From Candidatus Collierbacteria bacterium GW2011_GWB2_45_17 (GTDB lineage Bacteria > Patescibacteriota > Microgenomatia > UBA1400 > MFAQ01): a stretch of 58,386 nucleotides of DNA. How positions within the stretch are numbered: the first letter of the stretch is position 1; every line of letters starts with the position of its first letter. The stretch is taken from contig LCKO01000010.1 in NCBI GenBank assembly GCA_001001485.1, forward strand, positions 1 to 58,386, read 5' to 3'. The notes beneath the pieces are model-generated. The model searched no databases. It was not told where the DNA came from and saw only the letters and a program-made list of their open reading frames with translations. Below are positions 33,164-58,199 of this stretch, piece after piece. Position numbers and translations under genes: made by a program.

Positions 33164-33691
33164 ATGAAAATACGGGTGGTTGTATTATCTGGATTGATAT
33201 TGATTGTTTTTTTTGTATTATTTGGATATCTCAGTTTTGCTTATTATGTAAAGGCAACAAGCTATATTTATTCTTTGAGTTATGCTGAACGAAATGACTC
33301 TCTTATTCGCTTATATGACGACTTCAGTCTTGGGAAATTGGGAGGTATTTTGGTATATATTTCAGATGGAAGTAAACCTGGCATTTGGTTTTGGTATAAA
33401 AACAGACTGAAGTTTGTCTCCGTCGACCACCAATCTGTCTTTTCGGTTTATAAGGGTTGTGATCTTGAGGTGTTTAATATGATGAATAATGGTGGTGATC
33501 GAACAATGCCGAGAAGGATATACACGTCTTTATCTGATCTTAAAAAAGAATTTGTTAAGAGTGGGGAGTTGGTAACTATTTTGTTGGCAAAAAACGTTGA
33601 TGGCAATAGGGTGAATGTAGTTCGTGAATTGTGGATGCAGGACTGGTGGAGTTTTAAGAATGGAGACATGAAAATACAATGCAAAAAATAA
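33164..33691 (+). CDS. hypothetical membrane-anchored protein
   Basis: 175 aa, N-terminal TM helix. Confidence 0.55.
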   Translation: MKIRVVVLSGLILIVFFVLFGYLSFAYYVKATSYIYSLSYAERNDSLIRLYDDFSLGKLGGILVYISDGSKPGIWFWYKNRLKFVSVDHQSVFSVYKGCDLEVFNMMNNGGDRTMPRRIYTSLSDLKKEFVKSGELVTILLAKNVDGNRVNVVRELWMQDWWSFKNGDMKIQCKK

Positions 33692-39982: not shown

Positions 39983-41344
39983 CTAGGGATAGTAAAAGGA
40001 TTGGGTGAGGTTGGTGGCTAGAGGTTGGCCGAAGAGGTCGATGGTTTGGGGGGAAGAGACGAGGCCGTGTTGTTTCAGGATGGCTAGGGAGTAGTTTGCC
40101 TGGTTTGGGAGGGTGTAGCTGAGGGTGATGGTGCTTTCGCCACCGGCCAGGGTGGTGTGCCAGAAGCCAATCTCGGTGAGGCCGTAGGCAGATTTCAGAT
40201 CGTAGTTCTCAGATGTCAGTTCTCGGTAGTCAGATGGGGTGCGGGAGAGGGAGATGTTTTGGGCATTTTCGGGGATATAGAGACGGAGATAGGCAATGTA
40301 ATTGCCGCCGTAATGAAGAGGAGGGTTGGGGTTAGCTTCGATAGAGGAGTTTTGGAATTGGATGGTGACGGAATGATGGATGGTGGTGGAGGGAGATTTC
40401 TCGGCTACGCTCGAAATGACGTGGTTGGTTTGGCGAGTGATGAAGGCGTTGGCCTTATTGGCGCCCAGATTGGTCTCGATCATCGAGTAAGTATCAAAAG
40501 CTTCCGATTGAAAAACTCCGGCGAGCTTTTTTTGTTTCAGTAGGCTTTGAAAAGATAAATTGGTCGAGTGAATCATGATATTTTGATCTATGATGTCTGT
40601 ATAAAGTATTTGCGCAATACGGAGTTTTTGGATAAACGACAGGGACTTTATTTTCTTGACCAGGGCGCTACCCACGGCGGTCAGGGCGTCTTTTTTTTGG
40701 GTGGAACCCGGGAAGAAGTTGAGTTCGGCTTTGCCTTGGAGAAATAAATAGAGATTGTCGGGCGTGAGGGTGGCGGAGTGTTCCGGCACCGGAAAAGAGC
40801 CGACAACAGCCAGGACTTTTTTGATGGTGGAGAGATTTAAGATGGCTAAAATGTCCGGATTGATTTCACGGCCTTTCTCCAAAAACCAGCGGATGGTCTT
40901 GGCTGAGCTCGGGAAGTCCGGCTCCCAGTCGGCGTTGGCTAGCTCCCAGGTGCCGTGACCGAAGGCTTGCTGAATAGGTTCGGGAGGCTTCACAAAAAGG
41001 CCGGCGATTTGACCGTTCGGGACGTAGATGTCTTGAAACTCGAATGTAATTGTGGGTTTGGGGATTCGAGTTTTAAGAAAGAACTCAAGAACTCGAGGAT
41101 TCAAGAACTCAAGGCGTTTGGTGGAGAGGGTGAGCTTGGCGTAGGAGCCGGCAAAGCCGCCGTTGGCGCGCATTTCGGCATCGTTTCCCAAAAGAATGAG
41201 ATACGAGGTGGGACGGTCTATACCCAATAAGTAGTTGGTGAAAGGTAAGTAGGGTTTAAAGAACGCAAGAACTCTAGAACTCAAGTAAAAGACAAGCAGG
41301 AGGGAAAAGAAAATAGATAGAGAAAGAAATAAAAAACGCTTCAC
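39983..41344 (-). CDS. DUF4012 domain protein (membrane anchored)
   Basis: 453 aa, N-terminal TM helix. LLGNDAEMRANGGFAGSYAKLT matches the DUF4012 signature. Carries an F-like element and minisatellite insertions in frame. Confidence 0.75.
   Translation of the reverse strand: MKRFLFLSLSIFFSLLLVFYLSSRVLAFFKPYLPFTNYLLGIDRPTSYLILLGNDAEMRANGGFAGSYAKLTLSTKRLEFLNPRVLEFFLKTRIPKPTITFEFQDIYVPNGQIAGLFVKPPEPIQQAFGHGTWELANADWEPDFPSSAKTIRWFLEKGREINPDILAILNLSTIKKVLAVVGSFPVPEHSATLTPDNLYLFLQGKAELNFFPGSTQKKDALTAVGSALVKKIKSLSFIQKLRIAQILYTDIIDQNIMIHSTNLSFQSLLKQKKLAGVFQSEAFDTYSMIETNLGANKANAFITRQTNHVISSVAEKSPSTTIHHSVTIQFQNSSIEANPNPPLHYGGNYIAYLRLYIPENAQNISLSRTPSDYRELTSENYDLKSAYGLTEIGFWHTTLAGGESTITLSYTLPNQANYSLAILKQHGLVSSPQTIDLFGQPLATNLTQSFYYP
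40391..40421 (+). repeat. F-like element inside the DUF4012 CDS
   Basis: GGGAGATTTCTCGGCTACGCTCGAAATGACG, translated on the minus strand as HVISSVAEKSPS. Confidence 0.65.
41075..41115 (+). repeat. AACTCAAGG-type 8-9-nt tandem repeat tract (inside the DUF4012 CDS)
   Basis: AAGAAAGAACTCAAGAACTCGAGGATTCAAGAACTCAAGGCG, translated LEFLNPRVLEFFLK. Confidence 0.7.
41258..41290 (+). repeat. AACTCAAGG-type tandem repeat tract (inside the DUF4012 CDS)
   Basis: AAAGAACGCAAGAACTCTAGAACTCAAGTAAAAG. Confidence 0.6.
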
Positions 41345-41367: not shown

Positions 41368-42225
41368 ATGGATTTTAAGCAGATACTCATGGCTACCTCA
41401 CTTTATGACTGGTTGGGGAAGCGAACTTATGCTCAATCGGGGGAGGATGTGATCGCGTGGGGGGAGCTAAAAGAACTCAAGGAATCAAGAACTCAAGAAA
41501 TCAAGGTACCTGCAGGGCCAGGCCTTGCAGATTGGGGACCTCTAAGGCCTGGCCCTAGGGGGTCAAAAACGGGGTTTTATGTGGATGTGGGGGCGTATCA
41601 TCCGAAACTATTTTCGAATACGTATTTGTTCTACAAAAAAGGCTGGCGGGGCATTTGTATTGAACCGAATCCGAGAATGAAAAAGTTGTTTCTGATAGCC
41701 AGGCCGAGGGATGTGTTTGTGAGTGTGGGAGTGGGGGAAAATCAAGAACTCAAGAACTCAAGGAATCAAGGAATCAAGACAAAAAGAGTTTTGGAGTATT
41801 TTGAGTTTGAGGATGGGGCGGTGAATACTTTTTCGGCGGAGCAAGCCAGGAAAAATCAGGAGGAAGCAGGCCGGAAACTGATAGGCAGAAGAAGGATACC
41901 GGTTCTGCCGCTCAAAACTATTTTGGATAAATATTTGCCTAAAGGCCAAAAAATTGATCTGCTGTCGGTGGACGCGGAGGGGATGGATTTGGAGGTTTTG
42001 AGATCGAATGACTGGAAAAAGTATCGGCCGGAGATGATTATTGCGGAGGATTTGACCGACAGGGCCAGGCCTTATAGGGGATTTAATCCTTCAAGGCCTG
42101 GCCCTGCGGGTGGTGGTAGTGGAGGGGTGGTGAGATTTTTGGACAGTGTTGGATATAGATTGGTGGCGAAGACGCCGTATTCGGTGATATTTAGAGTCCA
42201 ACAAGGAGTCTCCTTGAAGGTATAA
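41368..42225 (+). CDS. FkbM-family methyltransferase riddled with repeat insertions
   Basis: 285 aa. YAQSGEDVI...FYVDVGAYHP..FSNTY.FYKKGWRGICIEPNP and DLLSVDAEGMDLEVL are FkbM/Methyltransf_21-like. It contains two minisatellite tracts and two REP-A dimers in frame. Confidence 0.7.
   Translation: MDFKQILMATSLYDWLGKRTYAQSGEDVIAWGELKELKESRTQEIKVPAGPGLADWGPLRPGPRGSKTGFYVDVGAYHPKLFSNTYLFYKKGWRGICIEPNPRMKKLFLIARPRDVFVSVGVGENQELKNSRNQGIKTKRVLEYFEFEDGAVNTFSAEQARKNQEEAGRKLIGRRRIPVLPLKTILDKYLPKGQKIDLLSVDAEGMDLEVLRSNDWKKYRPEMIIAEDLTDRARPYRGFNPSRPGPAGGGSGGVVRFLDSVGYRLVAKTPYSVIFRVQQGVSLKV
41465..41505 (+). repeat. AACTCAAGG-type tandem repeat tract (inside the FkbM CDS)
   Basis: GAGCTAAAAGAACTCAAGGAATCAAGAACTCAAGAAATCAAG, translated ELKELKESRTQEIK. 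Confidence 0.7.
41509..41561. repeat. REP-A dimer (two units separated by a short spacer)
   Basis: CCTGCAGGGCCAGGCCTTGCAGA-ttgggga-CCTCTAAGGCCTGGCCCTAGGGG. Confidence 0.8.
41738..41782 (+). repeat. AACTCAAGG-type tandem repeat tract (inside the FkbM CDS)
   Basis: AAAATCAAGAACTCAAGAACTCAAGGAATCAAGGAATCAAGACAAAA, translated NQELKNSRNQGIKTK. Confidence 0.7.
42056..42110. repeat. REP-A dimer (degenerate)
   Basis: CCGACAGGGCCAGGCCTTATAGG..CCTTCAAGGCCTGGCCCTGCGGG, inside the FkbM CDS. Confidence 0.7.
42199..42220. repeat. REP-D palindrome copy
   Basis: CAACAAGGAGTCTCCTTGAAGG at the 3' end of the FkbM CDS. Confidence 0.65.
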
Positions 42226-45232: not shown

Positions 45233-48200
45233 CTATTTTGTCTCCACTAGCCAGTAGTTGAAGGAGATTCCGGCGGAGGGGGAGGCAGGGACAGCGACGG
45301 TGAAGCCCGTACCAGCTTGTTTGGACTTGACATATAGGACTTGGTTGGAAGTGTCGGAGATGGGGGTGAGGTAGATCAGGGTCTGATCGGTAACTTTTTG
45401 GTTGGCAACGACTATTTCGGCCGACCCACTAGCAATGGTGGCAGTGCCGATGGTGGTGTTGGAGCCGGTTTGGGCCGAAATGGTGGCCGTCTGATCGAGA
45501 TTGTCCGAGGCGATGATGAGGCCGCCGGCGGCGAGAGTGCCCGAGACGGTGGCGGTGCGGGTGTCGAGCCCCATACTATATATAGTACCGGTAATCAAGA
45601 GATCGCCATTGACCACTATTTTGCCGTCGGGGTAAAGCGTCATTAGATTCGCTAGGAGGTGGACCGGTTTGTCGCCGGTGGGTTGGATGTACAGATCGCT
45701 GTCGAAAGAACTAAATGACTGGGCAAAGAGCGAGCCGTTGACCAAGAGGGAGTCGAGGACTAGATCTGAGGGTAGAGTGGCCGAGGTGGTGGCGAGGGGT
45801 GAAAGAGCCAGCGGGTCACTATCGGTGATTGGTGCGGAGTTATTGGTGCCTAGTGCGAGAGAGTCGTAAGAAGTGTACTTGGCTTGGAGGTCGGCCAGAA
45901 TGGCGGAGGCGGTGGAGTATTTTTCGCTCAGAAGATCCAGCTGGGTGGTGAGATGGTCGACAGTTTTGCCCTTGATATTGTCGGCGTAAAGAGTGCCGGA
46001 GATGGTGGCATCGATGACTTTGAGCTGATCGATGTCGGCGATGGGAGAAATGAGTTTGGTGCGGACTGTTAAGTTGGTGGCGACCAGATCGGTAACTACT
46101 TGAGCACCGACCTTTAGATTGGCAATTAGACTTTGGAAGAAAGAGGAGACCTCTTTGGTTTCTTGACCATTAATTTTTACTTGATAGGAGCCATCAACTT
46201 TGGCAATCAGTTCTGGGGCAATAATCAGGGAACTGAGCAGACCGGTACCGGCAGTGTTTTGGTTGTTGTCCGGGTCGTTTAAGACGAAACCGACGGCGCC
46301 GGAGGTTCTGGTATTGGCCCACTGGGCACTATCGAATCTGGGAGCGGTCAGGCGATAGGTGACATCGGCCGGAGTGGAGGAGTAAATGGCGAGAATTTTG
46401 TTTGGCTCGTCGACTTCGTACCAGGTTTTGGCTTGACCGGCGGCGGTGAGGAGGACAGAAAGACTATCGATGTTGGCTTTTAGATCGGTGGTTTTGCTAA
46501 AAAGCCAGAGGTCGGAACCTTTGGGCTGAGCGTCTAGGTCGATAAGAACTCGATAGCCCAAGCCGTCCACTGCTTCCGAAACGGTAATCTTTCCCATAAC
46601 TTCTTCTTTGATACCAATGGTGCTGGAGAGGTAGGTGGCGTATTTTTCACCGTTAATGGTGTATGGCGGGTCGACCGTTCCAACGTCCATCTTGCCGGAG
46701 CCTCCACCGACGGTGACAGTACCGGCCAGGTTTGAATCACCTTTGACATAAAGAGTACTTTCTGTACCCAAAGTGCCGGAAATGGTGGCGGTGCCGGTGA
46801 CATCGAGGTTGAAGGTGGGGGCGACGGTGCTACCAATTCTCAGTTTGGAGGCCACCTTCCAGTCGCCATTGGTCAGCTGATTATTGAGAACATCAATGGT
46901 GGCGGTGCCGGAGTCGTCGGCAATTTGATTGACATATAAACCTGTCCAAGTTTGGGTGCTACTGCCTAGCGAGTAGGTCAGGTCGGAGTGGGGTAGGATG
47001 TGCCCCTCGGTTTCAAGAACTGCGAGGGCGTTCGTGATCGGGGTGGTGACGGAGTTGAAGCCAATTCCGAGTGGGTTCATGAAGAAAGATTGATTATCAT
47101 CACTTGACCCGGAGAGATGGATCAGAGCGGAGCTGGTGGCCGTGGCGCCGAGATTGACCGAGTCAGTGATCTGGGCCGGAGCCAAGGAAAGAGAGGTTCT
47201 TTGCCAGTTACTCGATGATAGAGGGGAGCCGTTCACCGTGTAATTGCCAGTGATATTGACATCGCCGACGACATCGAGTTTGTAAGCAGGCGCCGTCGTC
47301 CCAATCCCCACGTTGCCAGCATAGTCAACTACGAAAGGAGTCGTATCGGTATAAGTGCCATCATCGTTGACTCGGAGAGCATAAGCAGAAGTACCAGTTT
47401 GGGCGGTCGTTACATTTAAAGCTGTGCCATCGCCGGCTCCAGCTCCAGTTATGCCAACTTTTAGAGCCGAGCCGTCAATATCAGCGTCTGTACTTGTGGT
47501 ATATTCAATCTTAGCAAGATTTCCCGTCCACGAAGCGCCAGGATTTCCTGACGCGGTAATATTTAAAAGACCGCCAGTTGTAAGTGCGGTTGAAGTTGAG
47601 GCTAAACTAATAGCAGTTCCCGTAGTCAATGAATTGGCATTATAAGTTACGCCCGTCGTTGTGTCACCGGTAAAGTTTTGTGTCCAAGTAAAGGTAGTTT
47701 GATTTAAAATCAAATTAGCATCAAGATCTAAAGTATCTTCAAAATTGGAAAAATCAAGACAGTTGACACAACTGACATCGGTAGCGTACAGAGTGCCGTC
47801 AACTTCCGCATTTCCATAGACATAAAGATCTTCGTTGGCCGTGCCGTTATCAAAAGTATATCCGGTATCGGGGGCAATATACACATCTCCTCCGACCGTA
47901 TGGAATTTACTATCAGGAGCTACCGTTCCCACTCCCACATTTCCATTGGCCAAGACTTTCAAACCTGTAGTCCCACCACCGGTGAGGATACCACCAAGGG
48001 CAAAATCTCCACCCTGGACTTCTTTGAGCGAGAAAGTATCAAGGGTGAAAGCTTGTCCTGCCGTGAGAGTAGTGGTGATGACAAAGTCAGTGGGAGTGGT
48101 GGCTGATTTGAAATAAGTAGTCTGGGTACCGGCCGTCAAAGTCAAAGCAGTGGTCGCAGAAGCAAAAGCTGTCGTGATATTGGCAGTAGGAGTACCGGTC

Positions 48201-51049
48201 AAACCGGAGACGGTGTAGACAAACTTGTACCAACGTGAGCCAACTCCGGCCACAGCCAGGGTTCCACTGGCTTGCTGGACGGTTGAGGCAGTGCCAGCCG
48301 CAAAGGTACAGGTGGCGGCATCAGTAGCCAAAGCACAGTCGGTAGTTTGAGTCCAGGAAGTGCCGGCAGTCAAGTTGCCATTGGTCAGACTCTCAGTCCC
48401 AAGATCAGTCGGATCCATGATACTGCCATCTCCACCCCAGACAGAGAGTTTTTTGTCAGGGGTAAGGGTGCCGATACCGACGTTGCCGCTACTATCAACT
48501 CGCAACTTTTCACTATTATCAACTTTAACTATAAAGGCAGAATTTCCTTGTTGACTGCCTTCATCAGCAGATAAAATTATTTGTCCGTTATCCGCTGAGA
48601 TGACACTATAATTAGAAGTACCCAAAGTATCTTCAAGACGAATTCTGGGAGCTTGTGCCGCTATGTGCAACGGGTTACTTGGCGCCGTCGTCCCGATGCC
48701 GACGTTGCCGGCGTTACCTCCTTGCCCAACTACGGTAAAATAATCATTTGTACCAAAAGCGGTGCTTTGTGATAATGTAAAGCTGTCAGAATTAGATGTG
48801 TCAATTCCCATTGCCCACGCTGTACCCGCATTAAGCTCTTTCATTACAAGTAAAGCGTCATTACCAGGAGCAGAAAAAGCAAATGAATTATTTGCATTAG
48901 ACTCCCTAATAATTCGAAGGATATCATTACCGCTTGCGCCTCCATCAATTTGTAGTTTTGATCCTGGTCCCGTCGTCCCGATGCCCACATTCCCATTTTC
49001 AACAAGGAGACCATAGTTGTTGGTGGCGCCACTGGCAGAGAAATAACCGCCGATGTTGGTTGAAGTTGTCCCGGTGTTGGTGACGGCTGAGTAAAGACCG
49101 TAGGCGGTATGGGAAGCATTGGAGTTGGTTCCTGACCGGCTGATATCCAAAAGTTTAGAAACACCACTGGCTCCACCTGCAGTAGAAGTAGAGGAGAGGT
49201 CAAACAGAGTACCGGTGGTTAAAGAAGTAGAGGCAAGGGCAAAAGCATCGGCGGTGGTGACTGAATCAAAAGTAAAGGCGGTGGTATAGCCGGCATGGGC
49301 CAGGGAGAGATTGGCAGTGGGGGCTATGATAGAGGACCAAGGCAGGGTGCCGGCGAATGTTCCGGTGATGGTGCCGTTACAAGAGAGGTTGCCATTGCTG
49401 TTGGTGACGGTACAGCCGGTACCGCCATAGCCACCAGCCAGGTTGACGTCTCCGGTGGCGGTGCCGTTTAAGTTCAAAGCATCAGCTCCTTTACTATCAA
49501 TGGAAAGGGCAATGTCAGTATCTCCACCGGTGGCGGCAAGTAAGACTGTGCCGGCGGTAGCGGCATTGGTTAAAGTAGCCTCGTTCACGGCCGAGGCGGT
49601 GGTGCCAAACCTGATTGATTCATTACCGTTACTATCCAAGATATCTCCACCGGTAATTTGGAGATCGTCGGCAATGATGGTTTTGGTGCCGGTGTTGTCA
49701 ATAGTTAAATTACCTGATGAGTCAACAGTATGGGCGGAGTAGACTGTGCCGTCGGTGTAGGTGAGTCTTAGTTGTTCAGTAGTAGCCAAACTATCCAGCT
49801 TGGCGTCAGGCCCCGTCGTCCCGATGCCGACGTTGCCGGCATCAAAGATGGCGGCATAGTTGTTGGTGCCACCCGAAGCTGAGAAGTAGCCGCCGACGTT
49901 GGTGGTTGAAGCGCCGGTCTTGGTGGCATAAAGACCATAGCCGGTTCCAGTAATGGCTCCAGATTGGGCGATTTCCAGTCCCTTGATACTGGCAGTAGTA
50001 GCGGTACTGTTGATATAGGTGTTGTGGGCGACGATGCCGTTGGCGACGAAGTTGTGGGTGTTTTTCACCTCAATATCCCAAACTTGTTCCTCGCCGACGT
50101 ATGTGATGGAGGCAATTTTGACAAAGACTACCTCTTTAAGATCAGAGGTTGTTTCCATAACGGCAATTTCGTCGCCGGGGGAAAGATCGACAACCTTTGT
50201 CCAACCCAGGCTAAAACTTTTGTTGGCAGGCGATTTGACATTATTTGATTGATTTGTGATATTATTGGGAGGAATGGGAAGATTATCGACAGGCCAGTTA
50301 GGAAGATCTTCGGAAATTGCAGGAAATATTGCGGTTGCTTGGTTTTCAGCTGGAGCAATTTCCCCACTTTTGGCTCGCCCTAAATCGATTATTGATTTTA
50401 CGGTTACTTTTGTTGTTTCACTCGTAATATCTGGAGTGTTCTTTATTATTTCATTAAAATTAGCTAAGGAGGTAAGATGATGATTGAATGGAATGTTACC
50501 AACACTTATTTGTTGGCCGCTATCGTCAGTTGTTTGGTCTGGATTGTTTTCTATTATATTTACAAGAAAGGAAGGTGAGCTGTTGTGCAGGCTAACATTT
50601 ATTTGGTTATTATCGCTTTGGTTGTTATTTCTATCATCGGCTATCTGATCTTGTTCCGTTTGGGAAGGAAGTGAAGTTTTTACCAAGTAAGGATGATTAC
50701 CTGTGGTTCTGATAGTTTTTCCGTCTTTGGTGGTGAGTTTGTATACAGGTTTGACCCCCATGTTTAGTAAGCCTTTGATTGGCTGGGGTTCCAGCTGGCC
50801 GGTAGTTTCGTTAAAAGATAAAACATATTCACCACCTTTGACTTGGTCGATTCTTTGAGTGGAGCCGTCAGCTAAAGAAAGGAGTGAGTCGCCGGTGATA
50901 CACTGGCCGGCAACTTCCAGATTTGCCCCAGGAGCGGTTGTTCCGATGCCGACCGATCCATTTTCCACTATCAAACCATAGTTGTTGGTAGCCCCGGAGG
51001 CGGAGAAGTAGCCGCCGACGTTGGTGGAAGTTGTCCCGGTGTTGGTCAC
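45233..51049 (-). CDS. giant surface protein, C-terminal segment (frame stays open upstream to about 51303)
   Basis: 1938-aa ORF. Many NVGIGTT.P..KL tail-fibre-like motifs, one roughly 122-aa module, one intein. The track start (GTG 51049) is internal, because upstream codons read ...VSKLLDISRSGTNANASHTAYGLYSA. Confidence 0.7.
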   Translation of the reverse strand: MTNTGTTSTNVGGYFSASGATNNYGLIVENGSVGIGTTAPGANLEVAGQCITGDSLLSLADGSTQRIDQVKGGEYVLSFNETTGQLEPQPIKGLLNMGVKPVYKLTTKDGKTIRTTGNHPYLVKTSLPSQTEQDQIADDRNNNQSDNNQINVSLHNSSPSFLVNIIENNPDQTTDDSGQQISVGNIPFNHHLTSLANFNEIIKNTPDITSETTKVTVKSIIDLGRAKSGEIAPAENQATAIFPAISEDLPNWPVDNLPIPPNNITNQSNNVKSPANKSFSLGWTKVVDLSPGDEIAVMETTSDLKEVVFVKIASITYVGEEQVWDIEVKNTHNFVANGIVAHNTYINSTATTASIKGLEIAQSGAITGTGYGLYATKTGASTTNVGGYFSASGGTNNYAAIFDAGNVGIGTTGPDAKLDSLATTEQLRLTYTDGTVYSAHTVDSSGNLTIDNTGTKTIIADDLQITGGDILDSNGNESIRFGTTASAVNEATLTNAATAGTVLLAATGGDTDIALSIDSKGADALNLNGTATGDVNLAGGYGGTGCTVTNSNGNLSCNGTITGTFAGTLPWSSIIAPTANLSLAHAGYTTAFTFDSVTTADAFALASTSLTTGTLFDLSSTSTAGGASGVSKLLDISRSGTNSNASHTAYGLYSAVTNTGTTSTNIGGYFSASGATNNYGLLVENGNVGIGTTGPGSKLQIDGGASGNDILRIIRESNANNSFAFSAPGNDALLVMKELNAGTAWAMGIDTSNSDSFTLSQSTAFGTNDYFTVVGQGGNAGNVGIGTTAPSNPLHIAAQAPRIRLEDTLGTSNYSVISADNGQIILSADEGSQQGNSAFIVKVDNSEKLRVDSSGNVGIGTLTPDKKLSVWGGDGSIMDPTDLGTESLTNGNLTAGTSWTQTTDCALATDAATCTFAAGTASTVQQASGTLAVAGVGSRWYKFVYTVSGLTGTPTANITTAFASATTALTLTAGTQTTYFKSATTPTDFVITTTLTAGQAFTLDTFSLKEVQGGDFALGGILTGGGTTGLKVLANGNVGVGTVAPDSKFHTVGGDVYIAPDTGYTFDNGTANEDLYVYGNAEVDGTLYATDVSCVNCLDFSNFEDTLDLDANLILNQTTFTWTQNFTGDTTTGVTYNANSLTTGTAISLASTSTALTTGGLLNITASGNPGASWTGNLAKIEYTTSTDADIDGSALKVGITGAGAGDGTALNVTTAQTGTSAYALRVNDDGTYTDTTPFVVDYAGNVGIGTTAPAYKLDVVGDVNITGNYTVNGSPLSSSNWQRTSLSLAPAQITDSVNLGATATSSALIHLSGSSDDNQSFFMNPLGIGFNSVTTPITNALAVLETEGHILPHSDLTYSLGSSTQTWTGLYVNQIADDSGTATIDVLNNQLTNGDWKVASKLRIGSTVAPTFNLDVTGTATISGTLGTESTLYVKGDSNLAGTVTVGGGSGKMDVGTVDPPYTINGEKYATYLSSTIGIKEEVMGKITVSEAVDGLGYRVLIDLDAQPKGSDLWLFSKTTDLKANIDSLSVLLTAAGQAKTWYEVDEPNKILAIYSSTPADVTYRLTAPRFDSAQWANTRTSGAVGFVLNDPDNNQNTAGTGLLSSLIIAPELIAKVDGSYQVKINGQETKEVSSFFQSLIANLKVGAQVVTDLVATNLTVRTKLISPIADIDQLKVIDATISGTLYADNIKGKTVDHLTTQLDLLSEKYSTASAILADLQAKYTSYDSLALGTNNSAPITDSDPLALSPLATTSATLPSDLVLDSLLVNGSLFAQSFSSFDSDLYIQPTGDKPVHLLANLMTLYPDGKIVVNGDLLITGTIYSMGLDTRTATVSGTLAAGGLIIASDNLDQTATISAQTGSNTTIGTATIASGSAEIVVANQKVTDQTLIYLTPISDTSNQVLYVKSKQAGTGFTVAVPASPSAGISFNYWLVETK
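49442..49807 (-). repeat. 122-aa module copy 1 (DAKLDSLATTEQLRLTYTDGTVYSAHTVDSSGNLTIDN...NLNGTATGDVN)
   Basis: A 366-nt unit repeated four times in the locus; by eye, roughly 85-90% nt identity between copies. Confidence 0.85.
50021..50902 (-). mobile_element. mini-intein 2 (294 aa) in the giant surface protein
   Basis: Starts at Cys after ..GANLEVAGQ (CITGDSLLSL, block A). Block B TTGNHPYLV, block F/G VWDIEVKNTHNFVANGIVAHN followed by +1 Thr (TYINS). The N/Q/T-rich linker takes the place of a homing endonuclease. Confidence 0.75.
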
Positions 51050-51111
51050 GGCAGAGTAGAGTCCATAGGCGGTATGGGAAGCATTGGCATTGGTGCCTGA
51101 TCTACTAATAT

Positions 51112-52494
51112 CTAAAAGTTTAGAAACTCCACTAGCTCCTCCGGCGGTGGAGGTAGAGGAGAGTGCAAAAGCAGAGGCGCTAGTGAGTGAATCAAAAGTA
51201 AAGGCAGTGGTATAGCCGGCATGAGCCAGGGAGAGATTGGCGGTGGGGGCAATAATGGATGACCAAGGCAGGGTGCCGGCGAATGTTCCGGTGATGGTGC
51301 CGTTATTAAAGCATCCGCTCCTTTGCTGTCAATTGATAAAGCAACGTCGGTATCTCCTCCGGTGGCGGCCAGAGTGACTGTTCCACCGGTGGCGGCATTG
51401 GTGAGAGTAGCTTCGTTGACGGCAGAGGCGGTGGTGCCAAAGCGGATTGATTCGTTGCCGTTGCTATCAAGAATATCCCCACCCGTGATTTGGAGATCAT
51501 CGGCAATGATGGTTTTGGTGCCGGTGTTGTCAATTGTCAGGTTTCCGGAGGAGTCAACGGTGTGGGCGGAATAGACCGTGCCGTCAGTGTAGGTGAGGCG
51601 GAGCTGTTCCGTAGTTGCCAAAGAATCAAGTTTAGCATCCGGCCCCGTCGTCCCGATGCCGACGTTGCCGTTACCTAAAATTGACAACAACTTTGTATCA
51701 CTACCTATAATTCCTGTAGCGACCTGGAAAACAGTTTCAAGCGCCCCCAATGCCACACGATTAACACCACTTTTCTTGTTACCACTTAACCATATTGCGG
51801 GAGTTGTGTCGGTTGGATCATCTACTCCAATTATTCCCTCCATTTGTATACCGGGAAAAGCTGCGCTTGTACTTATACCAGCCAAACCAGCACCACCAAC
51901 AGTGGCATGTGTAGGTTTTATTTGTAAAATAGAATTGGTTGGAGCAAAGTCCACCATACCATGTGCTATATCGGTATCTGTCAAAAGAAGATTTCCATCT
52001 CTTACATCCAGTTTCGCTCCCGGTCCCGTCGTCCCGATGCCGACGTTGCCGGCGCCAACAATTAAGCCGTAGTTGTTGGTAGCCCCAGAGGCGGAGAAGT
52101 AGCCGCCGATATTGATGGAAGTGGTGCCGGTGTTGGTAACGGCAGAATAGAGTCCATAGGCGGTATGGGAAGCATTGGAGTTGGCGCCTGATCTACTAAT
52201 ATCCAAAAGTTTAGAAACTCCACTAGCTCCTCCGGCTGTGGAGGTGGAGGAGAGAGCAAAAGCAGAGGCGCTAGTGAGTGAATCAAAAGTAAAGGCGGTG
52301 GTATAGCCGGCATGAGCCAGGGAGAGATTGGCGGTGGGGGCAATAATGGATGACCAAGGCAGGGTGCCGGCGAATGTTCCGGTGATGGTGCCGTTAGTTG
52401 ACATCACCGGTGGCGGTGCCATTGAGATTGAGCGCATCAGCTCCTTTACTGTCAATTGATAAAGCAACGTCAGTATCTCCACCGGTGGCGGCAA
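51112..52494 (-). CDS. giant surface protein, internal segment (true coding part about 51303-52396; both ends of the ORF are out-of-frame read-through)
   Basis: 460-aa ORF. The central part reads STNGTITGTFAGTLPWSS...NVGIGTTGPDAKLDSLATTEQ... The N- and C-terminal Pro-rich stretches are alternative-frame translations of the repeat. Confidence 0.55.
   Translation of the reverse strand: MPPPVEILTLLYQLTVKELMRSISMAPPPVMSTNGTITGTFAGTLPWSSIIAPTANLSLAHAGYTTAFTFDSLTSASAFALSSTSTAGGASGVSKLLDISRSGANSNASHTAYGLYSAVTNTGTTSINIGGYFSASGATNNYGLIVGAGNVGIGTTGPGAKLDVRDGNLLLTDTDIAHGMVDFAPTNSILQIKPTHATVGGAGLAGISTSAAFPGIQMEGIIGVDDPTDTTPAIWLSGNKKSGVNRVALGALETVFQVATGIIGSDTKLLSILGNGNVGIGTTGPDAKLDSLATTEQLRLTYTDGTVYSAHTVDSSGNLTIDNTGTKTIIADDLQITGGDILDSNGNESIRFGTTASAVNEATLTNAATGGTVTLAATGGDTDVALSIDSKGADALITAPSPEHSPAPCLGHPLLPPPPISPWLMPAIPLPLLLIHSLAPLLLHSPLPPPPEELVEFLNF
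51304..51639 (-). repeat. 122-aa module copy 2 (3'-truncated at a deletion junction)
   Basis: Same unit as 49442-49807. It ends at DSKGADAL, followed by the junction ..GCTTTAATAACGGCACC. Confidence 0.8.
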
Positions 52495-55400
52495 ACAAGA
52501 CGGTGCCAGCTGTGGCTGCGTTAGTCAAAGTAGCTTCGTTGACGGCCGAGGCGGTGGTGCCAAAGCGGATTGATTCGTTGCCATTACTATCCAGGATATC
52601 TCCACCCGTTATCTGCAGATCGTCGGCAATGATGGTTTTGGTGCCGGTGTTATCAATGGTTAGGTTGCCTGAGGAATCGACGGTATGGGCGGAGTAGACT
52701 GTGCCGTCCGTATAAGTTAGTCTTAGTTGTTCGGTGAGTGCCAAAGAATCCAACTTAGCATCCGGTCCCGCCGTCCCGATGCCGACGTTGCCAGTGTCTC
52801 TATCCACCGTCAACCTTGTATTTATCGTTACGCCAGTCGCAGAATTTAAATAGAATTTATTATCTCCACCGTCATACACCATGCGAAAACCTCCTGAATT
52901 TGCATTACCAAAGGCGCCATTAGCCTCTGAATTAGCTTCTGTCAAGTCAATATAGGAGTCGTAAGTACTAAGAGTATTAAGTAAAACATTAGAATTAGTA
53001 GCACCATATACATTTAATTTACTTAACGGTCCCGTCGTCCCGATGCCGACTTGCCCGGCTTCATCAACCACAAAAGGAGTGGAATCGGTAAAAGTACCGT
53101 CATCATTGACGCGGAGAGCAAAGTTGGAAGTTCCGGCATCTGTTGAGGCGGTGGTAATATTTAGAGCTGATGAATTGGCCCCTGTATAGTTTTGAGCAAT
53201 CCTCATCGTGTCTCCGGTCCAAGTTAAGGTTCCGGCGGTTTGAGTTCCCGAGTCAGATACGGTTACCCCGGCTCCTGATACGGTATGGGTATTGCCAACG
53301 TTATTGAGAGTGATGGCGCGGGAGAGATCCAAGACATTGCCGGTTGAGTCAAGTCCAGCCCCGCCGTTAAATGTTTGGGAGTAGGTGACATTGGCAATAT
53401 CCGAGGTAAAGGCAGTTGAGCCGGACGACCCTGTTTTACTTAAAGTCAAAAGCTCTCCATTAAAGGCGGTGGCGGTCGAGGAGAGAGCCAGAGCCGTACC
53501 TGTTGTCAAACTTGTGGATGAAAGAGCAAAGGCATCGGCGCTAGTGAGTGAATCAAAAGTAAAGGCGGTGGTATAGCCGGCGTGAGCGAGGGAGAGATTG
53601 GCAGTTGGCGCAATGATAGAAGACCAAGGGAGGGTTCCGGCAAATGTTCCGGTGATGGTTCCATTACAAGAGAGGTTGCCATTGCTATTGGTCACGGTAC
53701 AGCCGGTACCTCCATATCCGCCGGCAATATTTACGTCCCCGGTGGCGGTGCCATTGAGATTTAAGGCATCAGCCCCTTTACTGTCAATTGATAAAGCAAT
53801 GTCCGTATCTCCACCGGTGGCGGCAAGTAAGACGGTGCCGGCGGTAGCGGCATTGGTTAAAGTGGCTTCATTCACGGCCGAGGCCGTGGTGCCAAACCGG
53901 ATTGATTCATTACCGTTACTATCCAAAATATCTCCACCGGTAATTTGGAGATCGTCGGCAATGATTGTTTTGGTGCCGGTGTTGTCAATGGTCAGGTTGC
54001 CGGAGGAGTCAACGGTATGGGCGGAGTAGACAGTGCCGTCGGTGTAGGTCAGTCTTAATTGTTCGGTCGTGGCTAAAGAATCCAATTTAGCGTCCGGCCC
54101 CGTCGTCCCGACGCCGACGTTGCCGGAATTATCTATTGTCATTCGTGTGCCTATTGCCGTCCCATTATATGTCGCAAAGTGAATGTTCTTTTGTATATTT
54201 GTTCTCGCTTGCAGGTAAAGATCTCCACTGTTCGAGTTGTATATGGTAGGTACACTCACAGATGAAAGAGCTGTTTGGCTTGCTTCAAGTCGCAGGTAGC
54301 CATCAAGGGAAGTATCTCCATCCTCATCAACATAAAACGCAGTTGTGTTTAGATTTGAACCTATCGTGAATAATATTTGGTTGCCGCTAACTGCGGAATC
54401 ATAGATTTCAAGGTTTGCCCCCGGTCCCGTCGTCCCGATGCCGACGTTGCCGGCGCCAACAATTAAGCCGTAGTTGTTGGTAGCTCCTGAAGCGGAGAAG
54501 TAACCACCGACGTTGGTGGTAGAAGCGCCGGTCTTGGCGGCATACAGTCCATAGCCGGTACCGGTAATTGCTCCCGACTGGGCGATCTCCAAGCCTTTCA
54601 CACTGGCAGTAGTTGCCGTGCTGTTGATATAGGTGTTGTGAGCCACGATGCCGTTGGCGACGAAGTTGTGGGTGTTGGCAATTTGGAGATCGTAGACATG
54701 TTTGGCTGGGAGGATGCGAATGGAGATGATTTTTTCAAATTGTAATTCTCCGTTAGGGTCTGTCCTTTTTGGGGAACCAGATCCGTTAAGGACAGACCCT
54801 ATTGGACTCAAGACCGCGATTTCGTCACCTTTGTTGAGATAGATGACCTTGGTCCATTGTGGTAAAGTATTATTGATGTCAATTAATCCGGCTTGGTCAT
54901 CGGTGGTTTCTGATTTGTTTGTTAATTTGTCAGCCGGTTGGTTTGGAGCCGCATTTATTGTGCCTAATTTTTCTAATGTAAAAGGAGCGAAAAGGTTAGT
55001 GATGTTGACGGGTGATTTAGTATTTGCTATAGTTTCATTGTTAATAGCATCTTGGTTGAGATTATGAAAAATATTGAAAAATTCGACATTCTTGATATCA
55101 ACGCCCGAGTGGCTATTGCTTTCGGACTGGCGTTGGTTGCTTTGTTGCTGACCTATATCGCTTTCTTTAAGTAATTTGGTTCTCGCTAAGTACGGGTGAT
55201 TGGCGGTCGTTTCAATTCTTTTGCCTGTTTCGGTAGTTAATTCATAGATTTCTTTGGTGCCCATGTCCAGGGTTTTTTCGACGATCTGGTACTCAAACTG
55301 TCCGGTTGCTTCGTTGAGAGACAGAACTTGGTCGCCGGACTGAATGTCTTTGATTTTTTTCTCACCGACAGAAGTGCTGACTAAGGAGTTTTCTTCGATA

Positions 55401-55675
55401 CACTGGCCGGCAACTTCCAGATTTGCCCCAGGCCCCGTCGTCCCGATGCCGACGTTGCCGGCGTTTAGAATAATATTTCCGGTAGTGGAGTTACCCAGGG
55501 TCAGAGATTGCTTCGCGGTGGTCGCCAGGTTGCCGTCTTGACGTTTAGGACCGCGAACTTGGCCGAGGTCGAGGCCGTACTGCCCACGAGGAGGTCGAGC
55601 GTGTCGTTTATGGGGGAGAGGGCGCCGGCGGTGATGCGCCAGTTTGAGGAACCACCGGCAGATTGAGCCACCCAA
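52394..55675 (-). CDS. giant surface protein, central segment (true coding part from about 55538)
   Basis: 1093-aa ORF. Two module copies and one intein. The first roughly 45 aa of the track ORF (MGGSICRWFLKLAHHRRRP...) are out-of-frame read-through of the upstream segment. Confidence 0.7.
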   Translation of the reverse strand: MGGSICRWFLKLAHHRRRPLPHKRHARPPRGQYGLDLGQVRGPKRQDGNLATTAKQSLTLGNSTTGNIILNAGNVGIGTTGPGANLEVAGQCIEENSLVSTSVGEKKIKDIQSGDQVLSLNEATGQFEYQIVEKTLDMGTKEIYELTTETGKRIETTANHPYLARTKLLKESDIGQQQSNQRQSESNSHSGVDIKNVEFFNIFHNLNQDAINNETIANTKSPVNITNLFAPFTLEKLGTINAAPNQPADKLTNKSETTDDQAGLIDINNTLPQWTKVIYLNKGDEIAVLSPIGSVLNGSGSPKRTDPNGELQFEKIISIRILPAKHVYDLQIANTHNFVANGIVAHNTYINSTATTASVKGLEIAQSGAITGTGYGLYAAKTGASTTNVGGYFSASGATNNYGLIVGAGNVGIGTTGPGANLEIYDSAVSGNQILFTIGSNLNTTAFYVDEDGDTSLDGYLRLEASQTALSSVSVPTIYNSNSGDLYLQARTNIQKNIHFATYNGTAIGTRMTIDNSGNVGVGTTGPDAKLDSLATTEQLRLTYTDGTVYSAHTVDSSGNLTIDNTGTKTIIADDLQITGGDILDSNGNESIRFGTTASAVNEATLTNAATAGTVLLAATGGDTDIALSIDSKGADALNLNGTATGDVNIAGGYGGTGCTVTNSNGNLSCNGTITGTFAGTLPWSSIIAPTANLSLAHAGYTTAFTFDSLTSADAFALSSTSLTTGTALALSSTATAFNGELLTLSKTGSSGSTAFTSDIANVTYSQTFNGGAGLDSTGNVLDLSRAITLNNVGNTHTVSGAGVTVSDSGTQTAGTLTWTGDTMRIAQNYTGANSSALNITTASTDAGTSNFALRVNDDGTFTDSTPFVVDEAGQVGIGTTGPLSKLNVYGATNSNVLLNTLSTYDSYIDLTEANSEANGAFGNANSGGFRMVYDGGDNKFYLNSATGVTINTRLTVDRDTGNVGIGTAGPDAKLDSLALTEQLRLTYTDGTVYSAHTVDSSGNLTIDNTGTKTIIADDLQITGGDILDSNGNESIRFGTTASAVNEATLTNAATAGTVLFAATGGDTDVALSIDSKGADALNLNGTATGDVN
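52397..52762 (-). repeat. 122-aa module copy 3
   Basis: DAKLDSLALTEQLRLTYTDG...NLNGTATGDVN, followed directly by a stop created at a 62-nt deletion junction. Confidence 0.85.
53729..54094 (-). repeat. 122-aa module copy 4
   Basis: DAKLDSLATTEQLRLTYTDG...NLNGTATGDVN, followed by the intact IAGGYGGTGCTVTNSNGNLSCNGTITG segment. Confidence 0.85.
54635..55402 (-). mobile_element. mini-intein 1 (256 aa) in the giant surface protein
   Basis: Cys1 after ..GANLEVAGQ (CIEENSLVST). Block B TTANHPYLA, block F/G VYDLQIANTHNFVANGIVAHN plus Thr (TYINS). Q/N/S-rich linker, no endonuclease motifs seen. Confidence 0.75.
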
Positions 55676-56775
55676 GAGAGCGTGCCGGAGCCGTTGGTTT
55701 GTAAGACATAGTTAGTTGTTTGAGAGCTGGGCCAGGTGTAAGAGAGAGAGTTGAGAGTGGTGGTGCCGGCGAAGGTAACGTTGTCGTTTAGGGAGATGAT
55801 GGTGGAGTTGGAAGTCAGAGTTAAGTTGCCGGCAATATCATCAAGGGTGTGAGCCACGCCGTCCAGAAGAGAGATAATTCCCGCGTTGTTTAGAGTAAAC
55901 TTGGCCACGCCGGAGGCGGAGGCGGAAAAAAGATTGCCGGCGCCTGATTGATTTACAATAAAAGCGGAGTCGGTGGCGTTGGTGTTTAGATAGGCTCGGC
56001 CATCGGCGGCCACCCAGAAGCGATCGGTCTCGGTGGAGCCTGAAGTAAGAGAGAGGAGCCTGCCGGTCGCCGTGTCGTTCCCTACGTAACCCGAGAGGAG
56101 AGAGCCGGAAGTGAGATTGGCGTTCGTGACTCTAAAAGAGTCTTCGGTGGTAGTGCCACCCAGAGCCAGGATTTGGCCGGAGCCAAGGGCGTCCGGCTGA
56201 AAAATAACGTCGCCACCGGAGTCAGTGCCAGTTTTGAGGGCCAGGACTTGACCTTGAACAGAAAAAGTGCCGGAACTGGAAATGAGGGAAGGAGAGGGGG
56301 CAGCGATATTGATGTTGCCGGAGTTGTCGACCACCGGTACGGTGTTGATGGTGGCGGACGAAGATGCCGGATACCCCTGGAGGGTTTCGGAGTTGAGAGC
56401 GTAGCCGACGGTGGCAATTTGCTGACGGGGGGTTAGAGTTTCGGCGCCGACGGTGATTTCCAGATAAACGTCCCGATTGTCCGTGAAAACAGTGGAAGTT
56501 ATTTCCGCACCACAGACAGTGTCGCCTAGGAGAGTGTTAAAAATGCCATCTTGGTCGGGAGTGATCGAACAGGTACCGGTGGTGTAGAGCTGAGTGGGGC
56601 CGGTGAGCGCGTTGTAGAGCTTGAAAACTACGTTGACGGCGGTGGTGATGGGAGTGCCGCCACTGTCGGTGAGCCTGCCTTGGAAGGAAAGTTGTCTTTT
56701 GGGAGGGGTAAGTGAAGTGGCGGCGGAGCTGGGTCTCGCTTGGCTCACGATCTGATTGTAGGCGAAGATAGCCAT
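55501..56775 (-). CDS. giant surface protein, N-proximal extracellular segment (frame open without a start codon up to about 57242)
   Basis: 424-aa ORF from ATG 56775, but the upstream in-frame codons encode a second SAM-like repeat and a TM helix (..LPWTPYLNLALLVLATTAMAIFAY). Motif SFQGRLTDSGGTPITTAVNVVFKLY...YLEITVGAETLTPRQQI. Confidence 0.65.
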   Translation of the reverse strand: MAIFAYNQIVSQARPSSAATSLTPPKRQLSFQGRLTDSGGTPITTAVNVVFKLYNALTGPTQLYTTGTCSITPDQDGIFNTLLGDTVCGAEITSTVFTDNRDVYLEITVGAETLTPRQQIATVGYALNSETLQGYPASSSATINTVPVVDNSGNINIAAPSPSLISSSGTFSVQGQVLALKTGTDSGGDVIFQPDALGSGQILALGGTTTEDSFRVTNANLTSGSLLSGYVGNDTATGRLLSLTSGSTETDRFWVAADGRAYLNTNATDSAFIVNQSGAGNLFSASASGVAKFTLNNAGIISLLDGVAHTLDDIAGNLTLTSNSTIISLNDNVTFAGTTTLNSLSYTWPSSQTTNYVLQTNGSGTLSWVAQSAGGSSNWRITAGALSPINDTLDLLVGSTASTSAKFAVLNVKTATWRPPRSNL

Positions 56776-57056
56776 GGCGGTAGTGGCCAGGACTAGGAGA
56801 GCCAGATTGAGGTAGGGCGTCCAAGGCAGAGCGTGGTAGCGGTCGTAGGCTTGGCCGAGTCTGTTTCTAGGCGTGGGGGATTCTTTCTTTCTTTGGGTCA
56901 GTCTTTCCAGCCAGGCCAGGGGAGAGAGAGTCTGGGGAGTAGCTTTCAGTTCGAAAGGATTTTCGGGGAGATAGCTTTGCTCGTAAGAAAACTTGGTGAG
57001 CTTTTTGATGGAGGACTGGCGACGGTTGATGACGGAAGTACTAGTATGAGATAGTT

Positions 57057-57590
57057 TTAGGTAGGTAACATAGGTGGAAAGTAGCTGTTCGCTAAGAATG
57101 TTGACCAGATTTTGGTCGGTAAAGGGGGTTTGGTTGGCAGTCCAGAGAAAGAAGTGATGAAGATCCGAAAGGTAGTTTTTGACGGTATTTTGGCGGAGGA
57201 GAGGGAAGCGGCGGGTGACACACCCTGTAGGGCCAGGCCTTGAGGATTGGTGCCCTTTAAGGCCTGGCCCTGGAGAGGGGCGAGGCCGAACTGGGCGTGC
57301 AGGAAAGTAGAGAAGCGGCGGATGGAGGCGAGGCGCCTGGCAGTGGTGTTTGCCGGAGTGAAGGAGGCTTTTTGAGCTTGAAGATAGGGATCGAGGTATT
57401 GATTGAGATTTTGGAAGATGTCTTTGGTGGTGAGGGTGAGGCCCGCCGCCGCCGAAGGCTCTGGCGAGGTAAAGGAGAGGAAGTGGCGGAGATCGGAGAG
57501 GTAGTTTTTGATAGAGACGGAAGAAAGACCGGCCTGCTGGAGAAAGGCTTGGAAGAATTTTAACAGTTCTACTTGGTCGGGCAGGTACAT
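57057..57590 (-). CDS. giant surface protein, N-terminal cytoplasmic segment with tyrosine-recombinase core-binding (SAM-like) repeat
   Basis: 177-aa ORF. FLQQAGLSSVSIKNYLSDLRHFLSF ... TTARRLASIRRFSTFL resembles the phage-integrase N-terminal SAM-like domain. The last roughly 60 aa are out-of-frame after the REP-A dimer. Confidence 0.6.
   Translation of the reverse strand: MYLPDQVELLKFFQAFLQQAGLSSVSIKNYLSDLRHFLSFTSPEPSAAAGLTLTTKDIFQNLNQYLDPYLQAQKASFTPANTTARRLASIRRFSTFLHAQFGLAPLQGQALKGTNPQGLALQGVSPAASLSSAKIPSKTTFRIFITSFSGLPTKPPLPTKIWSTFLANSYFPPMLPT
57224..57275. repeat. REP-A dimer with a 1-nt gap in one arm (site of frame break)
   Basis: CCTGTAGGGCCAGGCCTTG-AGG ... CCCTTTAAGGCCTGGCCCTGGAG. 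The arm GGCCTTGAGG lacks the C expected from palindrome symmetry (GGCCTTGCAGG). Confidence 0.75.
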
Positions 57591-57684: not shown

Positions 57685-57726
57685 TATATAGATTGCCGCG
57701 ATCGCCTAGGCAACCTCGCAATGACG
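57685..57726 (+). repeat. E-type hairpin element
   Basis: TATATAGATTGCCGCGATCGCCTAGGCAACCTCGCAATGACG. Confidence 0.8.
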
Positions 57727-58162: not shown

Positions 58163-58199
58163 CGTCATTGCGAGGTTGCCTAGGTGACCGCGGCAATCC
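58163..58199 (-). repeat. E-type hairpin element (inverted)
   Basis: CGTCATTGCGAGGTTGCCTAGGTGACCGCGGCAATCC is the reverse complement of the E consensus. Confidence 0.8.

Follow-up and report, generated by a model that had tools for sequence, protein, structure and literature searches.

Mosaic adhesive trimer (MAT) fibres of Bdellovibrio have a conserved beta-rich N-terminal domain of ~130 amino acids (aa) behind the export signal (Caulton et al. 2024, PMC10769870). The capping loop of MAT and S74 proteins, V-G-G/N-pi-x-x-P-x-x-x-L, sits on a trimeric beta-helix (PMC10769870). It has also been reported that repeat-rich giant genes fragment short-read assemblies (West-Roberts et al. 2023, bioRxiv 10.1101/2023.11.21.568195). 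Here we analyse a stretch of 58,386 nucleotides (nt), called the window, which is one whole contig (LCKO01000010.1, Candidatus Collierbacteria bacterium GW2011_GWB2_45_17) from a short-read metagenome and contains 0 N characters. Its minus strand carries a giant tail-fibre-like gene that, as assembled, is split into five open reading frames (ORFs). The gene encodes a tail-fibre/MAT-like fibre with inteins and is a member of a large uncharacterised family in Patescibacteria. We conclude, with a probability of roughly 0.88, that the split into five ORFs arose as an artefact of assembly. The gene itself is real; a giant adhesin gene that is broken or switches is not.

The giant protein resembles Bdellovibrio bacteriovorus MAT in having a putative beta-rich base domain at the equivalent position after the export or anchor signal, recurrent motifs like the V-G-x-x-x-x-P-x-x-x-L capping loop and a mosaic, repeat-rich make-up. 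Its C-terminal part gives weak PDB matches to 8ojn, 8on4 and 8oml, which are Bdellovibrio MAT fibres, and some of its relatives carry S74 chaperone (PF13884) or collagen domains. It differs from MAT in being ~4 times longer (4208 versus ~1000 aa), in having an N-terminal transmembrane (TM) anchor and two cytoplasmic SAM-like domains where MAT has a cleaved signal peptide, in its two inteins, and in its motif VGIGTTxPxxKL, which exceeds the published consensus by one residue. Furthermore, its MAT_N match is half-length and below the curated cut-off, neither the S74 chaperone domain nor any other tip domain was matched in it by Pfam, and its host belongs to the Patescibacteria, whereas MAT is found in an outer-membrane predator. 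Phage fibres and tailspikes with GNVGIGT or Peptidase_S74 (K1F endosialidase, T5 L-shaped fibre) share the motif type and a trimeric beta-helical segment, which the giant protein is predicted to have. In contrast to these, the present protein is a cellular, membrane-anchored one that lies in an ordinary chromosomal neighbourhood and is without S74. As for the state of the gene, it is similar to other fragmented giant genes of metagenomes in that a repeat-rich gene breaks assemblies, and most of its homologs are 'partial' at contig ends. The difference is that the pieces in the window are joined without gap characters, so the damage mimics frameshifts.

One gene across five reading frames

The assembled gene and its four junctions are located as follows.

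45233 to 57590, minus strand: giant gene as assembled in the window, 12358 nt including the stop codon
57188 to 57189, minus strand: junction 1, ~49-52 nt absent, encoding roughly ILEQFKxYLEKxxKTxS, the first helix of SAM-like domain 2
55537 to 55538, minus strand: junction 2, 61 nt absent, encoding NSGTPTASVSAGTAGAAYLTA
52396 to 52397, minus strand: junction 3, 62 nt absent, which are the Cys segment LAGGYGGTGCTVTNSNGNLSC
51305 to 51306, minus strand: junction 4, 94 nt absent

Five stop-free stretches of the minus strand make up the gene (57683-57060, 57642-55504, 55711-52397, 52524-51115 and 51328-45236). The frame changes four times along it, protein sense runs on across each change, and a continuous 4118-aa protein with 0 internal stops is obtained from the window after four small edits. 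A first-pass annotation, made from the sequence alone, had read the five ORFs as one giant tail-fibre-like surface protein gene, and this was borne out by the reading and by homologs that run through all boundaries. The annotation had put the intact length at ~4100 aa; two independent assemblies show that the intact gene has 12627 nt and encodes 4208 aa.

These came from a comparison with ten other contigs (JGI, NCBI and ENA), which were found via two nearby genes, Obg and the adjacent one of 219 aa. Several of the ten are groundwater metagenome assemblies of PRJNA268031, and the window is 99.4-100% identical to them over the aligned stretches. JGI Ga0209727_1000475 and ENA ERZ27254732 k141_57656 have a single 4208-aa ORF in which Pfam finds, in this order, SAM-like, Hint, intein and intein, and its readable 9.3-10 kb contain 0 internal stops. 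In eight of the ten, the gene is cut only by the contig end (products of 3515, 3515, 3467, 3123, 2345, 2024, 2023 and 2008 aa). None of the ten other assemblies has an internal frameshift in the giant gene. Outside the junctions, the gene in the window is 99.96-100% identical to the intact versions and has no stop or other lesion. The junction sequences of the window are TCCTCCGCCAAAATACCGTCAAAA, CCTAAACGTCAAGACGGCAACCTG, GGTGATGTCAACTAACGGCACCAT and CGGATGCTTTAATAACGGCACCAT, and 24-mers across these four junctions were absent from all other assemblies compared. By 24-mer coverage, sites 3 and/or 4 are covered by six distinct contigs, site 2 by contig L043 alone and site 1 by none. The contig of P0008 (L001), which comes from a noisy long-read assembly, was uninformative. 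A search of representative proteins did not have the 4208-aa protein itself among its matches; scans of metagenomes and genomes gave only relatives at 27-70% identity, plus the JGI contig L024, and the intact contig was not among their matches.

Junctions 3 and 4 are located in repeat modules of the fibre.

53549 to 54094, minus strand: repeat module A, complete, with the Cys segment
52279 to 52762, minus strand: repeat module B, split by junction 3
51188 to 51639, minus strand: repeat module C, split by junction 4
49262 to 49807, minus strand: repeat module D, complete

These modules are 84-88% identical at the DNA level. There are four of them, as had been annotated, while each has ~180 aa instead of 122 aa. 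Alignment of the four modules revealed that, compared with A and D, module B is short by 62 nt and module C by 94 nt, and that the gaps end right before TAACGGCACCATCACC. The earlier observation that the Cys segment is gone from modules B and C, with TAACGGCACCATCACC following both junctions, is thus confirmed. Other contigs that reach these sites are longer than the window by 62 nt at 52396/52397 and by 94 nt at 51305/51306, and each segment is base-for-base identical in four assemblies (L036/L002, L039/L005, L040/L006 and L041 for the 62 nt). The restored segments differ at copy-specific positions from each other and from modules A and D, and therefore they are real sequence, not filler. When they are restored, ...GDVN(I/L)AGGYGGTGCTVTNSNGNLSCNGTITG... 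is present in all four modules. The Cys segment is bordered on both sides by a short direct repeat, AACGGCACC. The junction bases 52396 and 51305 are each the first base of an exact repeat of at least 40 nt that is present in three copies, and the start of an exact repeat is a place where a de Bruijn assembler stops. Moreover, two other contigs, NCBI LCKJ01000018.1 (100% identical to the window) and ENA k127_466185, terminate on base 51305.

At junction 2, contig L043 (ENA k141_456120) aligns to the window exactly to 55537 and then has 61 extra nt. The segment that they encode is also carried by more distant homologs. It had been proposed that one added A at 55538 would repair this break, and it does restore the frame, but the real lesion is the absence of 61 nt. 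Single-base repairs at both junctions (A4 to A5 at 57188 and A2 to A3 at 55538) restore the frame and were rejected after the comparison with homologs and contigs. Junction 1 had been placed at ~57242 and is actually at 57189/57188. Between SS-K and TVKNY, every homolog has 17 residues (ILEQFKxYLEKxxKTxS) that are absent from the window. The closest relative, L046 (80% aa and ~88% nt identity), has 49 nt more at this junction, and the DNA alignment resumes at 57186. The Pfam match of SAM-like domain 2 starts at profile position 14, versus position 4 for domain 1, which fits the loss of the first helix. In the intact contigs, the comparison covered the gene from 2.6 kb behind its N-terminal end onward, past junction 1, and the repair proposed for this junction is therefore based on the homologs, the 4208-aa gene calls and length arithmetic. 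The sum 12358+52+61+62+94 is 12627 nt, or 4208 codons plus stop, which agrees with the gene calls if junction 1 is short by 52 nt.

L043 and L024 show local sequence variants beside junctions 2 and 1, respectively. L024, which has a length of 1 kb, matches window 58301-57283 at 100% identity; beyond this stretch, ~94 nt before junction 1 is reached, the two sequences diverge. This divergence is in the low-complexity linker between the SAM-like domains, and suggests a linker-length variant in the population. A scan of IMG/VR with a 30-mer beside junction 2 gave no match, and neither did exact-product look-ups of window ORFs (1938 aa and 177 aa) and of small upstream ORFs (77 aa and 55 aa).

Origin of the breaks

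The assembler's contigs would have ended inside the gene, where repeat branch points would have stopped them at junctions 3 and 4, and stretches of local variation at junctions 1 and 2. The pieces would then have been joined end to end, with the intervening 49-94 nt dropped. Because none of the omitted pieces (~52, 61, 62 and 94 nt) is a multiple of three, each join would shift the frame. Strain variation is likely behind the contig ends at junctions 1 and 2, because the L043 and L024 variants adjoin them; a paralog elsewhere is the alternative. The other large ORFs of the window that were checked have full-length domain matches and no signs of breaks, indicating that base-level quality is good and that the defects are local. 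Among the three explanations offered in the first-pass annotation, it is repeat-induced assembly errors that the evidence favours, and the intact independent assemblies are at variance with a decaying gene and with phase variation.

If the gene were a real pseudogene, four independent out-of-frame deletions would have occurred in the strain of this contig and the gene would be decaying. The window sequence as given does have four frameshifts, and length variants of the repeat region exist in other assemblies. However, a decaying gene is hard to reconcile with near-complete identity to the intact versions outside the junctions and with the lack of stops and scattered lesions. Junctions 3 and 4 are on the first base of exact repeats, junction 4 is also on the last base of two other contigs, and no other assembly shares the junctions. 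Four deletions, each of them out of frame, would also be an improbable set of events in a 12-kb gene that is untouched elsewhere. We thus regard a pseudogene as unlikely. Repeat-mediated phase or antigenic variation, in which module recombination or slippage produced an 'off' allele that is seen in the window, appears very unlikely. It is true that the gene encodes a surface fibre with internal repeats that are 84-95% identical, that the direct repeat AACGGCACC is on both sides of the Cys segment, and that L042 and L043 have alternative in-frame versions. Nevertheless, no homopolymer or simple-sequence tract is present at the junctions (the only runs are A4 and A2), and recombination between the AACGGCACC copies would remove an in-frame piece of 90 nt, whereas the window is short by 62 and 94 nt. 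In addition, junctions 1 and 2 are outside the repeats, and the 'off' state would require four simultaneous frameshifts.

Five separate genes, or a chimera of distinct genes wrongly joined, would have to be assumed if each ORF stood on its own, and to this we give almost no credence. ORF 1 starts with ATG, and most database homologs are fragments labelled 'partial'. On the other hand, a plausible separate start is absent from each of ORFs 2-5, with the first ATG of ORF 2 inside the TM helix, and single-ORF homologs run through all boundaries. The pieces also have the order and content that they have in the intact 4208-aa ORF elsewhere. Programmed frameshifting was rejected as well, as slippery sites are absent, the four junctions do not resemble one another and the gene also occurs in intact form.

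Several points weigh against an assembly artefact. The coincidence of a repeat start and contig ends with the junctions holds for 3 and 4 only, and no exact repeat was found within the window at junctions 1 and 2. Junction 1 is spanned by none of the readable same-population contigs, and L046 predicts that 49 nt are absent there, not 52, which is one codon off. The repeat region of L042 (NCBI LCKV01000018.1) is in frame and 117 and 27 nt shorter, and that of L043 is in frame with one module fewer. These forms (window 51300-52800) may be more repeat collapses or real fibre length variants, and there may be some real structural heterogeneity of the repeat region. The evidence consists of assembled contigs, and a rare real allele with these deletions may exist. 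As for the product, its function as a fibre, its trimeric state and its topology are predictions, and the MAT_N match on which they partly lean falls short of its curated cut-off. If the breaks are an artefact, as we conclude, annotating the contig as given would wrongly yield a pseudogene or five hypothetical proteins. This class of artefact is easily missed, as gapless joins of contig ends in a repeat-rich gene mimic frameshifts.

The fibre protein, its inteins and its family

The product of the gene has the following parts in addition to the four modules.

57285 to 57554, minus strand: integrase-type SAM-like (core-binding) domain 1, cytoplasmic (Pfam PF02899, 35.9 bits, cut-off 22.3)
56953 to 57189, minus strand: SAM-like domain 2, N-terminus cut off by junction 1 (PF02899, 23.5 bits)
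56758 to 56814, minus strand: single TM helix YLNLALLVLATTAMAIFAY, the sole hydrophobic segment
56371 to 56697, minus strand: beta-rich domain (SFQGRLTD...) adjoining the TM helix (NCBIfam NF053851, E=2.6e-7)
54635 to 55402, minus strand: intein 1, 256 aa, without endonuclease domain (PF14890, 71.2 bits; TIGR01445 and TIGR01443 above cut-off)
50021 to 50902, minus strand: intein 2, 294 aa (PF14890, 57.5 bits; TIGR01445 and TIGR01443 above cut-off)
45233 to 49261, minus strand: unique C-terminal fibre and tip region, ~1340 aa, with more GNVGIG capping-loop motifs

The cytoplasmic N-terminal part that had been described as one domain exists, and consists of two tandem Phage_int_SAM_1 domains. 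The TM helix followed by the SFQGRLTD domain is present in the window protein, as annotated; only one 19-residue window in the whole protein reaches a Kyte-Doolittle value of at least 1.6. The NF053851 match has 30.6 bits, below the cut-off of 60, and covers profile positions 8-74 of 162; a sub-threshold partial match to the same profile was also observed in eight of ten family members. The Thr/Gly/Ala/Ser-rich fibre region has GNVGIG(T)..P..KL motifs (capping-loop form GNVGIGTTxPxxKL), which number 14, not dozens. A PDB sequence search with the ectodomain base gave no match. In PHROGs, one weak tail-fibre match was found (phrog_18345, E=1.8e-4). An LPXTG motif was not found in the fibre protein.

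The product would thus have two cytoplasmic XerC/D-type core-binding domains and one TM helix, probably in N-in orientation. Outside the cell, a MAT_N-like beta-rich base would be followed by a long fibre of tail-fibre-type segments and a unique C-terminal tip, and the fibre would include the four ~180-aa modules, each with a two-Cys loop. From its sequence, we infer a trimeric surface fibre for binding cells or surfaces in a small-genome, probably episymbiotic bacterium.

Relatives occur in Collierbacteria and in other Microgenomates or Patescibacteria, and the best matches are 55-80% identical. Most best matches are 'partial' and named 'site-specific integrase'. The recombinase catalytic domain (R-H-R-Y, PF00589) has no match in the giant protein or in ten relatives, and relatives match only positions ~2-100 of the XerC/XerD profiles, with all scores far below the equivalog cut-offs. 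The database name is therefore a misnomer, and identity as a tyrosine recombinase was rejected, since only the core-binding part is present. The catalytic domain is absent from every family member tested. Almost all copies from short-read data are truncated by the end of their contig. The full scan gave 9041 clusters at 50% identity (E<=1e-3), many of 2000-7700 aa and the longest of 7697 aa. Relatives align from residue ~140-160 onward, which indicates that the first SAM-like domain is part of the same ORF. An intact 3038-aa homolog in a single ORF was found on a 1.09-Mb Collierbacteria contig; assuming a genome of the size of this relative, the giant gene takes up ~1.2% of a ~1-Mb genome. We found no description of this family in the literature on candidate phyla radiation (CPR) bacteria. 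It is thus a widespread family of Patescibacteria that is mostly held in databases as misnamed fragments.

Both inteins reported in the first-pass annotation score above the Pfam and TIGRFAM cut-offs (35.8 bits for PF14890). Intein 1 has the motifs CIEEN...TANH...VAHN|T (Cys1, block B, C-terminal HN and Thr +1), and intein 2 has CITGD...TGNH...VAHN|T. They are 33% identical to each other, and no endonuclease domain was found in either. Both are at the same site in paralogous fibre segments, right behind the capping-loop motif (...NLEVAGQ|C). To give the mature chain, as predicted from these motifs, they would have to splice out. With class-1 inteins (DnaB, GyrA, RtcB) they share Cys1, the TxxH block B, the terminal His-Asn, Thr +1 and the Intein_splicing and TIGR matches. 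They differ in that the host is an exported structural fibre, whereas the hosts of the others are replication or repair enzymes, and in that a low-complexity insert of ~100-160 aa takes the place of the homing endonuclease. In their setting inside a repeated surface protein, they resemble bacterial intein-like (BIL) domains. Inteins are present in many members of the family. In its splicing blocks, intein 1 is ~99% identical to the intein of the Collierbacteria protein P0002, and the N-terminal exteins are ~63% identical. This hints that inteins have passed from one fibre gene to another in the absence of any recognisable homing endonuclease.

By analogy, the likeness to the prey-recognition fibres of Bdellovibrio offers a testable idea for partner attachment, as a lead at the level of the family, and the giant fibre family may merit study of its own. 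Jointly, these observations allow a tentative picture, to which we give somewhat less than even odds, of a very large unstudied family of membrane-anchored MAT/tail-fibre-like attachment fibres. In it, the cytoplasmic tandem recombinase-type DNA-binding module could link attachment to the cell interior, inteins would repeatedly target the most conserved fibre motif, and the L042 and L043 differences could be real cassette-like variation.

Neighbourhood of the gene

The neighbours of the giant gene are Obg, Rho and LysM peptidases. Window ORFs with full-length matches include S1, a copper ATPase, a DsbA-like protein and Peptidase_M48/M56, and Rho and Obg are annotated on matching contigs. From its domains, one more ORF probably encodes a RadA-like ATPase. 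A sortase-like gene and the LysM/YkuD and LysM/M23 cell-wall enzymes are at 36.6-43.5 kb, near the fibre gene. The ORFs at 22762-26538 (1258 aa) and 33679-35790 (703 aa) have no Pfam match.

The assemblies of the population disagree at further sites. Window 41558-41723 is strain-variable compared with the JGI contig (a 13-nt indel and ~30 substitutions), and another scaffold has a 100-N gap there. Window 40454-41223 has 770 nt versus 581 nt in LCKJ01000018.1, in which the DUF4012 gene is broken at this place.

Just upstream of the giant gene, a 36-nt inverted repeat (57691-57726 and 58163-58198, 94% complementary) surrounds an AT-rich non-coding stretch of 436 nt. No match for this element was found in Rfam, and it may be a small mobile or regulatory element. 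A third, partial copy of the 36-nt repeat is located at 22934-22954, inside the 1258-aa ORF.

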